DNA from: Callorhinchus milii
Lineage: Eukaryota
Length of the DNA: 64,000 nucleotides
Direction: 5' to 3'
NCBI RefSeq assembly: GCF_018977255.1
Contig: NW_024704749.1
Location: forward strand, 7,316,001 to 7,380,000
Shown here one piece after another: positions 8,879 to 14,506 of this stretch. The notes under the pieces were generated by a model, which saw nothing but the letters and a program-made list of their open reading frames with translations, was not told the DNA's origin and made no database searches. Position 1 is the first letter of the stretch, and every line of letters starts with the position of its first letter. The position numbers and the translations under genes were made by a program.

Positions 8879-9802
8879 GTCACTACGGTTTACAGTAACC
8901 TCCCACGGGACGTCCTTCCGGCGTAATGTAAGGCACTTTCCCGAATTATTAATAATTCATTATTAATAATCATTATTATTGTCAGCTCAGAACACACTTC
9001 CCGCACTCTGCGTTCTCACCTCTGTCTGGAAGCTCTTGAGAAGTGGGGCCACCATCTCTCTGATTTCCTGCAAATAAAAGTTTCCTGAACTTTAGAAGAG
9101 ACGAAAAAACCCAAAGCCACGCATACGACCTTCAGCGACAACAACAACAACAACAAGATTGCATTTATAGAGCGCCTTTCGCGTCGGGAGGACGTCCCAA
9201 GGCGCTGGACCTTCGCACCTAGTTTGCAACATTTGTTAAACAGGGTCTCTTAAGGAGGAAACTTACAACTAGTGGGGAGAAGGTGGTGGGGGAGGGGGGT
9301 GGGGGATCTAGCCTTTATCTGCCACTTGCCCGCTGTCCTCCCACAAACTTCAGCTTTGGTGCACTCGACAAAAATGAAGACATCCGCATGCTCCCCCTTC
9401 CCCCATCACCGGTCCGTCCTGTATAACGCAAGGCAGCCCCATCTAACTCAGGAAGATGTTTTTCGCGCCAAGTGGATTAGAAATCTGGAACTCACTCCCT
9501 CCCCCAAATGCCTGTGGATTCTGGAGCCAATCAAATTTTCAAGACTGAGGTGGACAGATGTTTGTTAGGTCAGGGTATCAAGGGAAAAGGGACAAAGGCG
9601 GGTAATTGGATTTGAGGTACAGATCAGCCGTGATCTAACAGAATGTCGGGACAGGCTCAAGGGGCTGAATGGCCTCCTGCTGTTTCCCTACCTGTGGTGC
9701 ATTGCGTTTGAAGTCCCGGCTCAGCTCTATCAGATGCTTGTGAGATCGTTCGCTCTCTTCCTGCCGAGCGACCAGCTCCGTCGCCACCGAACTCAGTTCC
9801 TT
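1..9802 (-). CDS. CUX2: Cut-like homeobox 2 transcription factor, exons 2-17 (partial: exon 1 not found; 3' part continues past the left edge)
   Basis: Phase-consistent GT-AG exons: 9692-9802 ([24 protein letters not shown]), 9020-9067 ([16 protein letters not shown]), 7393-7471, 6732?-6863 (donor uncertain), 6320-6443, 5952-6028, 5511-5577, 4521-4569, 3959-4063, 3370-3564, 3153-3211, 2562-2610, 1890-1992, 873-1409 (CUT repeat 1: [38 protein letters not shown]), 619-720, 1-249. [22 protein letters not shown] and the MYL2/CCDC63 neighbourhood favour CUX2 over CUX1. Confidence 0.92.
2183..2524 (-). mobile_element. tRNA-derived SINE
   Basis: Tail-to-head family match. Further partial copies at ~2796-3058, 7578-7715, 8405-8640, 14940-15400, 15880-16220, 37360-37735, 39204-39445, 53220-53355. 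Confidence 0.75.
6995..7325 (+). repeat. Interspersed repeat with an internal 18-bp tandem (x3)
   Basis: GCATGTGTCAGACACCCG x3 at ~7127-7182. Related copies at ~11485-11650 and ~51630-51800. Confidence 0.6.
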
Positions 9803-12800
9803 CTGACAAAGAGGAGACAAAAGGTTTTAGGAGCCGCCATCTACGCTCCCCATTTCCTTTGGGATTTCCTTCAGGAAAGACGTTAAACCCAGCTCCTCCC
9901 CACCCCCTCCCCTCTCCGCACACACAAACACTGTTCGTCTGTTTCCCCATTTGGCTCCACACTAAAGATCTCCGTTCCCCCCGCGGCGCTGTTCATTAAA
10001 GAGAAGAAAGTTTCTCTCCCAGTGTCCCTGGCTGACAATTCCCCCTCCCTCTCTATTCCCACGTTCCCCCCCTCCACCACCCCGTTACAAAACAGTCACT
10101 CGCTTCACTCCTGCTTATGGGGACGGACACTGCCTGCCGCATTTCGGCTACAAAAAAAAATCCAGTCGCTTGACTTGGCGGTAAATCAAACCTCCTGTGA
10201 AATGCTTCGCGACGTCTCAATGTGAGGATTTACAGCACTCTGAGACTCTGTCCACGCTCCACGGCGGACAATCTGAACACGGTGGTGCTTTCAGCCATCC
10301 TGCCCTGCTTTCTGCATCTCCCTCTGACTCGCTCCCTCCCTCCCTCCCCTTGATCCAAGTCGCATCTCAAGATGCGCCTCTTTGCCCAGTTTGTGGTCTT
10401 CTTTCCTCCCCACCCCAATCCATCCTGAACACCTTTGAGACTTCACCCCAACGTGAGTATGAATGTACCCAACTGCGTTACTTAAAGTGGTGGAAGTGAA
10501 GACCTGGGGGATAGCAGAGAGTGAGTGAGTAAGTGACTGAGTGAGCGAGCGACAGAGAGAGAGTGAGCAAATGAGTGAGAGACAGAGGGAGTGAGTGAGA
10601 GCAATAGAGTGAGCGAGAGCATGAGCGAAATTATGCGAGTGAGCGTGAAATAGAGGGAGCCTGCGAGAGCGAGGGTGCGAGAGCAAGCGTGCGAGAGCTA
10701 GTTGCGAGCATCACACCCCCACAACCCCCCTCGACACACACACACACACACACACACATACATACACAAAGTCTCTCTCTCCCCTCCACCCCCCTCTTTA
10801 CATTTCCATTCCCTTGTCCTGGCTCCGCGGCTAATTGCAATCAGCAGCAGATATCTGACACAGGGGCAGAGTCAGCAGGAATCTTGCTGAGCGAGCAGAA
10901 TCTTTGTCTAAAAATAATCAGATATTCTGCTCGTTGCTGTTAGCTGTAAAGGTAATCAATGGAGCAGGCTCTGGATTCATCAATATATTGATCCCCACTC
11001 CCCTGCCCAGTGCTTGTGTGTGTGTGTGTGTGTGTTGGTGTGTGTTTGTGTGTGTGCGCACGTGCGGTGGGGAGGATTGACTTGACATCAAGAGGTCTCT
11101 GTGCCATTCAGATAAGGCTGGATTTCAGCCAGTTGTTGCTCGTCAAACCCCTATATTCCCTGCGATGGACCCAGAGTGCAACAAAGGGGAGAGAATACTT
11201 CCCCCCCACCCCTCCCCCCACACGTCTGAGATGTGACATGTTCATCGATAAGTCAACCCGATGGGAAATCAATCAGTCACCCAATAATCAATAATCAATC
11301 AATCAGCCGATCAGACAGGGCTGGTAATAGACACACCTCATCCGTAACAGCAACAGAGACAACTTGGGTTTAGGCATCACCCTTCACACAGGCTAATATT
11401 GCAGCAGTTACCCCCTACCCCGCACCCCCCCCCCCCCAGCCACCAGTGCACACTCTGGGGTACCCCCCAAGTTTTGGTTCTTGCCAACCTGCGCCTAATA
11501 CTTTCCAGAATTAGGTAAGCAGGATGCGTCCCTCCAGGGAGGGGTGGGTGGGGGGGAGAGAGAGAGAGAGAGCCATTCCATTCCAATAATCTATCTCTGG
11601 AATTTCCACGATGGTGTTTCCGCACATGTCAGACAGCCGGCTGGCCAAAGAACTGTTAGCCCGAAAGTAAGTCGGTGCAGCCAGAAATCGATTGCCAAGC
11701 TTTCTTTTACATAAAAAGTATACATACAGAATCTATCATTTTTTCTCCCCCCAATCACCCCCAAAAAAAAAACAAGATAACAGATGAATAATGCGACTAT
11801 CAGCCAAATAACCAGAGAAATCTACACAGGAGATGGGGACGAGACATGCTTTATAGTCTTATGATTATTTTAATAAAGGCATTTTTTCAAAAATCGATGC
11901 CGTCCAAATTCATTACAAAAATGTAAGCGCTATATATTTCAGATGGGGAAGTCAGTAAAAAAGGCACCTCGCTCTTGCTCTCACTTTCTTAATATTTTAT
12001 TCACGGGAGAATATTTGACGGTGTTTAACGTGAATAATAAATGATCCTGATATGGATTTTTAGTCAAGAAAGGGGGAGAAAAGTGTTTTTTTTAAAAAAA
12101 AACTCCCCCTCCTCTCAAAGCCCCCTTCCCCTCATCACCCACTCTCCTTCACTCACATACACACACCCGCCCCCACACACTCGCTCACTGAACCCCCCCA
12201 CTCACTAGTTTGCTCGACCTCTCCTCATCCACCCATTCACTCACTCACTCGATGACCCCCCCCCTCACTCGCTCAATGATCCCCCCACTCACTCGCTCAA
12301 CACCCCTCTCGCTCACTCGTCGACCACTCCCACCCACTTGCTCAATCGCCAGCCTCCATCCTCTCGCTCAACACCCCCACCCCCCCACTCCACATGTTTA
12401 AAAAAAATCAGTTTTGATTTACGACGGACAGACAGACCGACAGACCGACAGACCGACAGACAGACAGACAGACCGACAGACCAACAGACCGACAGACAGA
12501 CAGGCAGCTCTGTGTTCCTGGATAAGCACTTCTCACAAACGAACATTTGGGGAGAGAATGGCTTGAATTATACTCTGTTCATAATGCAATTAAACACTTC
12601 ACTGGAAATCGATGTAAAACTGATGAGGCCTGAAAATGGTGCATATGGCTTCAAACAGCCTAACATACTGCCTCCTGCACTGACAAGCCCTCTCAGCAGC
12701 AATTTCAATCTACTTACAGCTCCGTCGTCTAATGGCAGGAGCGTGCGAGTGGGTGGGTGTCACCGCTAACCCAGAAAAGAAAAGGAAAAGGCGGGGGTGT

Positions 12801-13758
12801 GGGGGGGGGGGGGGAGGAAGAGAAGAAAAAACTAAATACACGCAATGCTGTTGTCAGTAATAATAATAATATTAATAGCAATTCTTGGTTTGATCGCAGC
12901 ATCTATCACGTCGGGAGGACGACCCACGCGCTTTTGCGGGATTTAAGTGCGGCAAGCGTCTTTGTGAGCAAACCCGGCGGCCGATTTGCACACAGTGGTG
13001 TCCCGGCTCCTGCATCTGCTCCCTCCCAGACTCAAGACACACACACTCGCGCAGACGCGCAGAACAATAAGTTGCACTTATACAGCGCCCCCTCACGCAG
13101 CACAGCGTCCCAGAGCGCTCGTCAGTGGCGGAGCACGACGCCGAGCCGGGGGTCGAGGAGGAGGTGACCTTAGGCACGGTTAAAGAGGAAGAGGTCTTCA
13201 GGCCCAATTTGAGACCGATACACTCACTCAGACACACGCACACGCACGCACGCACGCACACACAGACCGGGAGGACTAGTTGAGGACGCATCCCCCAAAA
13301 TAGAAAGCGTGGGGCAAATATTTGAAAAGGTAAAAATATGTAACTGGAACGAGGGTCGAGAGCTGCTTTGTAATAGTCCCCATTGCTGCTGGACTGAACG
13401 GCGTGCAAAAAAAAAAAAAAAAAAACCTCATTAATAGCGTCAGATAAACCCCCTCAGGACCTATTAATATCTATAAGATTCATAAGCCGCGGGGGTTATG
13501 GATGAGATGTCATTACTGGAGTGAGGCTGTTTGTATGGAGCATGTTAATGGGGGCTGCGTCGGGAGCTCAGCTCAGTAACAGGCACGAGCTGAACCTGGA
13601 GTCAGCGAGGCGTGCCTTCACTTGTTTTTTTGGGGGGGCAAATAATATATTTATTTGTAGTACGACACATAATAAATAATAATAATCCTTACGTTCGGTT
13701 ACGGCGCCTTTCACAAAAGTCCTGAAGCGATTTACAGGACACAGCGTAAAGCGCGCCG

Positions 13759-13792
<34 letters not shown>

Positions 13793-14213: not shown

Positions 14214-14270
14214 CATGGTCGCAGCTCGCCTGGAGTCAGCGGCAGGGAAGGAACACAATCCAAGTAGAGG
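14214..14270 (-). CDS. MYL2: MYL2-type first exon (5'UTR plus ATG only), oriented opposite to the rest of MYL2
   Basis: Minus strand reads GCGACC-ATG|gtaagag (ATG 14216-14214, strong donor), just downstream of a muscle promoter. MYL2 exon 2 at 26175 lacks its Met, and MYL2 exon 1 is known to contribute only the ATG. The 5' end is estimated from the TATA position. Confidence 0.72.
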
Positions 14271-14290
14271 GGGAGACAATGAAAGACGCT

Positions 14291-14506
14291 CAATAAATAC
14301 ACTTTGCTACGAGTAAAAATAAACGGATTCCTATTTTGGACATTCATTAGTAACCTGGTACCTCAAAGAACCGCCTCTTCCCTCCTTCCCTCCCTCCCTC
14401 CATCCCTCCCTCCCTCTCTCTCCCCCCCTCACCCGACAAATTGTCACCATTTGTGAAACTATTTAGCTGCTCAACTGTTTGTTCTCCGTTACAATGCTCA
14501 AGGTTA
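14291..14506 (-). promoter_or_regulatory. Myosin regulatory light chain-type muscle promoter
   Basis: Minus strand: TATTTAT (14299-14293), MEF2-like TTATTTTTAC (14322-14313), perfect CArG CCAAAATAGG (14339-14330), TAACCTTGA (14506-14498). Order and spacing resemble the mammalian MLC-2v HF-1/HF-3 promoter as recalled from memory, not aligned. Confidence 0.72.

Follow-up and report, generated by a model that had tools for sequence, protein, structure and literature searches.

An assembly block between the head-to-head MYL2 and CUX2 genes of Callorhinchus milii that is probably written in the wrong orientation

Results

The MYL2 and CUX2 gene bodies

The window analysed here is a 64 kb stretch of the Callorhinchus milii genome (assembly GCF_018977255.1, contig NW_024704749.1, positions 7,316,001 to 7,380,000), in which the body of CUX2 lies on the minus strand and exons 2-7 of MYL2 lie on the plus strand, so that the two genes form a head-to-head pair. 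Between them stands a muscle-type promoter with an exon that ends in its ATG, written on the strand of CUX2 and facing away from MYL2, the gene to which it likely belongs. We read this arrangement as the probable result of a mis-oriented block in the assembly rather than a true exchange of gene starts.

MYL2 exon 2 (26175-26264, plus strand) has a phase-0 acceptor, aligns with residues 2-31 of solved MYL2 chains, and is followed on the same strand by exons 3-7 (26663-26738, 26866-26970, 27448-27526, 27706-27754 and 28378-28482). Exons 2-7 (26175-28482) give 504 bases without an internal stop, a frame short of the ATG alone, and the encoded protein is closest to ventricular MYL2. Because exon 2 aligns from residue 2, the first exon of this gene gives the ATG and nothing more. 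The other MYL2 introns are 127-623 bases long, and the one after exon 3 has a GC donor (GCAAGT, 26738-26739, plus strand).

CUX2 exon 2 (9692-9802, minus strand) holds 37 codons, is in phase 0 at both ends, begins after an acceptor AG with AAG GAA CTG at 9802, and matches positions 24-59 of the 116 in Pfam CUX1_N. Exon 3 lies at 9020-9067 and further CUX2 exons continue to the start of the window, the first CUT domain falling at 868-1116 (both minus strand). Over 320-337 aligned columns the predicted peptide is 86% identical to that of horn shark and 80% identical to those of echidna, Xenopus and sterlet, values that suit a cartilaginous fish other than a shark or ray. The CUX2 protein of C. 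milii itself was not found among the 15 candidates returned for an exon 2 query or the 2,903 returned for a linker query, nor was it one of the 83 matches (best identity 81%) in a broad search of representatives.

The ATG-only exon and its promoter

The ATG at 14214-14216 (minus strand) ends its exon and is directly followed by a GTAAGA donor from 14213. Upstream on the same strand are a TATA-like element (14291-14299), an A/T-rich MEF2-like site (14313-14322) and a CArG box, CCAAAATAGG (14330-14339), all at most 130 bases from the ATG and hence inside 250 bases. The first-pass annotation had described this as a CArG/MEF2 promoter, which agrees with what we see: the CArG match is exact, while the MEF2-like site fits 9 of 10 positions of the MEF2 consensus and is missed by a strict consensus scan. 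The CArG box is the sole one in 9000-27000 and one of three in the whole window. Nine ATG/GT[AG] sites occur on the two strands of 9803-26174, and only the one at 14216-14214 has a CArG box upstream; when the region was simulated 300 times with a third-order Markov model, five of the sequences contained a CArG box paired with an ATG/GT[AG]AG site. Since MYL2 exon 2 starts at residue 2, MYL2 needs an ATG-only exon 1; the present one is the obvious candidate and likely the first exon of MYL2, on the strand opposite to the MYL2 body. Homology of its promoter at base level to the mammalian MYL2 promoter and its HF-1 elements is something we presume, and a literature search for a printed HF-1 element sequence found no paper.

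As assembled, the ATG exon is separated from CUX2 exon 2 by 4,411 bases (9803-14213, minus strand), the 4.4 kb intron of the first-pass annotation, which was also right that the exon ends, and CUX2 exon 2 begins, in phase 0. A splice from the ATG exon to CUX2 exon 2 is thus predicted to be in frame and, as both second exons start in phase 0, either first exon fits either gene. Such equality of phase is expected whenever both first introns are phase 0 and does not speak for a real event. The CUX2-proximal part of the interval (9803-13600, 3.8 kb) contains four ATCGAT sites, which we take to be a CUX binding motif, against none in the 9.8-kb CUX2 body and ten over all regions counted; this cluster, noticed post hoc, is possibly autoregulatory or due to chance.

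The missing CUX2 first exon

That CUX2 has a first exon of 21 codons ending in phase 0, as the first-pass annotation gave for the human gene, is supported by its relatives: of 17 cartilaginous-fish CUX2 proteins (chosen from 120 matches listed of 2,780), 15 have a 21-residue peptide in front of exon 2 and the two others start farther downstream, and the same peptide is matched in 61 of those 120. It hardly varies among sharks, rays, bony fish and tetrapods, and the CUX1_N domain begins with it. Among 203 CUX proteins retrieved, none starts with a Met joined straight to exon 2, although a predicted mammalian model has just two residues ahead of that exon.

Scans with a motif and with a profile, together with tblastn, find the 21-codon exon on neither strand of the 64 kb window. 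The best profile score was 19.5 (true peptides, 66.6-94.8) and half-profiles likewise remained under the true range, while a control profile in the same scan recovered CUX2 exon 2 at 73.8. A reciprocal join of CUX2 exon 1 to MYL2 exon 2, also foreseen from the reading frames, therefore has no template in the assembly. As the exon is usual in relatives and absent here, the assembly is incomplete exactly at this locus. The only possible hiding place between the two genes is a run of 25 N (20261-20285), where we would place the missing exon. About 1.5 kb of tandem and low-complexity sequence leads up to this gap (18724-20260), first a 29-base tandem array and then an irregular, G/T-rich one that reaches the gap; the 29-base unit is present in 23 copies at 18763-19414. 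The PP1 gene serves as an internal control: its first coding exon (40816-41002, plus strand) is cut off by a 149-N gap, showing that first exons drop out of this assembly. A further gap of 183 N follows 335 bases beyond, in a CpG-rich stretch (40816-41520).

On the far side of the 25-N gap an ATG-started stretch of nine codons (24949-24975, plus strand) has a phase-0 GTGAGA donor and lies ~90 bases behind a CCAAT-type box. It matches none of the CUX N-termini retrieved and may be another first exon of CUX2 or have arisen by chance; in the assembled order it would join MYL2 exon 2 in frame.

Strand skew across the intergenic region

We measured the keto skew (G+T minus A+C) of repeat-masked sequence. 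Skew is -0.049 in the CUX2 body and -0.082 in 9803-14212, near zero (-0.012) in 14340-18300, reversed to +0.129 in 20286-25150, and then negative again (-0.027) in 25151-26174. The MYL2 body has a skew of -0.077, and its introns 2-6 by themselves one of -0.099, with exon edges 1-2 bases off to marginal effect. The PP1 side (+0.025) follows the sense-strand rule weakly. The interval 9803-14213 (minus strand) has the sign of the CUX2 body and would be mostly CUX2 intron 1 with a short piece of MYL2 intron 1. The stretch at 14340-18300, rich in short interspersed elements (SINEs) and without strand skew, is probably the sequence between the two gene starts, and 20286-25150, which mirrors the CUX2 skew, would be CUX2 intron 1 written on the plus strand. 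This plus-strand skew begins to fade at ~24.2 kb and is lost towards 25 kb. Most simply read, a block from ~14 to ~25 kb (11-12 kb) is inverted, with both gene starts and the gap inside it, its left junction probably near 13.6-14.2 kb and its right junction near 24.2-26.1 kb, both broad intervals based on the skew. SINE orientation, tried as a second strand marker, offered no informative copy in 9803-14212 or after the gap.

Search for inverted repeats near the presumed junctions

At E 1e-5 the two junction intervals share no pair of inverted repeats, and the longest exact inverted match between them is 13 bases once low-complexity matches are excluded. A 46-base inverted pair (13074-13119 and 22846-22890, 83%, E 1e-3) belongs to a common short repeat and was rejected as too common, as were short G-rich matches near 13915-13936 and 24807-24836. 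The junctions thus provide no good substrate for a natural inversion.

Other features of the window

The window also holds, on the minus strand, an ODAD1 coiled-coil gene (PF21773 is matched by three of the four exons scanned), which from synteny we take to be CCDC63, and on the plus strand the gene for a PP1 catalytic subunit, presumably PPP1CC. There are ~30 repeat blocks. An Rfam scan of 9000-27000 gave a single match, a transfer RNA (tRNA) at 25294-25351 (plus strand) that belongs, as its head, to a full-length tRNA-derived SINE with an internal 21-base triple repeat.

Discussion

The exon anatomy and the mirrored skew are best accounted for if the 11-12 kb block between the head-to-head genes is written backwards around the gap. 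We give this reading, an assembly error and not a real swap, a probability of roughly 0.7. In the animal the ATG exon would then splice to MYL2 exon 2, while CUX2 exon 2 would be joined to a CUX2 first exon that the gap likely conceals. With the block turned round, MYL2 intron 1 would become 1-2 kb long instead of at least 6 kb, which is nearer to the other introns of the gene. Both genes look as though they are maintained in their usual form, with MYL2 exons 2-7 and the promoter elements intact, which supports an artefact. The first-pass annotation, which qualified its statement with 'as assembled', had raised the idea that an inversion could exchange the expression domains of the two genes without breaking either frame. 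Its frame logic stands, and an inverted block holding the MYL2 start describes the assembled locus best; a real exchange is the less likely reading.

How such a block might arise is speculative. A gap could have been extended from both sides without closing, and the whole fill, consisting of the left extension, 25 N and the right extension, could have been inserted reverse-complemented. This would leave the gap in mid-block between two arms of 5-6 kb, with outer joints free of N. We assume that a run of 25 N is the mark left at overfilled gaps.

Several observations weigh against an assembly error. The outer junctions are both N-free, as those of a true inversion would be, and they could not be located, none of eight candidate split-repeat pairs being convincing. 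Indels are not enriched in the SINE copies of the block (7 copies, 0.016 gap openings per base; 22 copies outside, 0.021; p=0.30), so the block is not raw long-read fill, though polishing could mask an error-rich one. The PP1 control is two-sided, as a gap at a first exon arises with or without an inversion. The skew argument has its own weaknesses: its z-values assume independent bases, the right edge was set once the curve had been seen, the sense-strand rule is followed neither by MYL2 nor by the ODAD1/CCDC63-type gene, and an excess of G+T is described for mammalian introns with other patterns in fish, at least in the part of that paper available to us (PMC2927911). A literature search for gap fills put in backwards turned up no publication, and the portion of the DENTIST paper accessible to us makes no mention of them. 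Finally, C. milii CUX2 has 33 lineage-specific changes to the 5 of horn shark (outgroup echidna, 320 columns), and the same test gives 34 to 4 with Xenopus as outgroup and 26 to 10 with sterlet.

The N-free junctions and the lack of a long-read error signature would suit a recent, real inversion, private to the sequenced animal or polymorphic, with the first introns of the two genes broken and their starts exchanged on one haplotype. An undecayed mirrored skew fits a young event and both joins are in frame, but the junctions are without inverted repeats, the assembly gap falls inside the block, and such an allele would probably be harmful; this possibility is improbable, if the strongest of the alternatives. 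Were it true, CUX2 would be made in muscle without its first 20 residues, and MYL2 would carry a 21-residue extension where CUX2 is normally expressed.

An inversion fixed in the lineage is considerably less likely. Here, in the strongest form of what the first-pass annotation proposed, one 11-12 kb inversion, breaking within the first intron of each gene, would have made a natural, in-frame reciprocal swap. The MYL2 muscle promoter would drive CUX2 and the CUX2 promoter MYL2, placing a CUT-homeobox transcription factor under the control of a promoter active in heart and muscle. The anatomy and phases as assembled agree with this, as do the N-free junctions, and a new expression domain would explain why CUX2 evolves faster than in sharks. 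However, the excess in rate is distributed across most CUX2 exons, and C. milii CUX2 is no farther from tetrapods than teleost CUX2 is (0.80 versus 0.79-0.82). MYL2 still resembles a ventricular light chain, and the CUX2 first-exon peptide is near-invariant from sharks to tetrapods and begins the CUX1_N domain. The skew also stops before MYL2, which makes an old inversion unlikely because long read-through from the CUX2 promoter would be expected to have extended it into that gene.

Slightly weaker still, and very doubtful, is the explanation without any inversion. On this view the ATG exon, with its good donor and promoter on the CUX2 strand, genuinely belongs to CUX2 as a second, muscle-type start, and the gap, which may conceal any length of sequence, has swallowed the true first exons of CUX2 and MYL2 (unless MYL2 begins elsewhere, for instance at the nine-codon candidate at 24949-24975). 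It needs no rearrangement, but MYL2 needs exactly an ATG-only exon and the interval has a sole ATG-donor site with a CArG box, the first intron of MYL2 would measure 5.9 kb or more beside others of 127-623 bases, and 0 of 203 CUX proteins begin with Met on exon 2.

If the block is an artefact, as we favour, a local error corrupts the gene models of both MYL2 and CUX2 and their upstream regions in this assembly, and flips of kilobase size next to gaps should be accepted in this genome only when reads support them. A limited search of the open-access literature found no report of a MYL2/CUX2 rearrangement, and the supplement of PMC3964593 has no match for either gene name.

The favoured reading has a partial counterpart in overfilled gaps of the PBJelly type. 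In the available part of the PBJelly paper a gap starts at 25 N, and unexplained overfilled gaps are suspected assembly problems, inversions included (PMC3504050); such gaps have also been tied to hidden scaffolding errors, according to the part available of a second paper (PMC9635638). The present locus shares the minimal gap of 25 N, the low-complexity ends and a flanking gene order that makes no sense, but differs in that the gap lies inside the apparently inverted block and not at its edge, and in its seamless outer joints, a combination that the text examined does not describe. The candidate start of MYL2, in turn, resembles the vertebrate MYL2 (MLC-2v) promoter with its ATG-only first exon, in that exon 2 runs from residue 2 and CArG, MEF2-like and TATA-like elements lie near the ATG; unlike that system, the C. 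milii promoter faces away from its likely gene body. The critical cardiac elements of the MYL2 promoter are placed within the first 250 bp in the accessible text of PMC4521923, which cites the HF-1a/HF-1b paper.

Real promoter exchanges are known from two settings, each taken here from the parts of the source available. Engineered inversion of the bidirectional Peg3/Usp29 promoter in mouse gave two fusion transcripts (PMC5515438), and in tumours promoter swapping yields CTNNB1::PLAG1 and, via a paracentric inversion of head-to-head genes, CHCHD7::PLAG1 (PMC9405559). The former is alike in that two head-to-head genes trade promoters and first exons once the segment holding these is inverted, the outcome that the first-pass annotation foresees for MYL2 and CUX2, and the latter in that breakpoints in 5′ non-coding sequence exchange regulatory control while the coding sequences are kept. 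MYL2 and CUX2 are likewise head-to-head, and their coding frames would be preserved across the new joins, but only one first exon is seen to face the body of the other gene, CUX2 exon 1 being absent and perhaps in the gap. The Peg3/Usp29 allele was engineered and verified by RNA, whereas the MYL2/CUX2 arrangement is read from the assembly, has one first exon missing, and would involve two first exons that are both coding. The PLAG1 swaps are somatic with demonstrated transcripts, and a reciprocal swap fixed in the germline of a lineage is another matter. With one first exon missing, breakpoints placed within broad intervals and fusion transcripts that are predicted, MYL2/CUX2 cannot be classed with Peg3/Usp29 or CHCHD7::PLAG1. 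If it were real, it would be a rare germline promoter trade between two conserved vertebrate genes with neither frame broken, of a kind otherwise found, among the literature examined, in tumours and in one engineered mouse allele.

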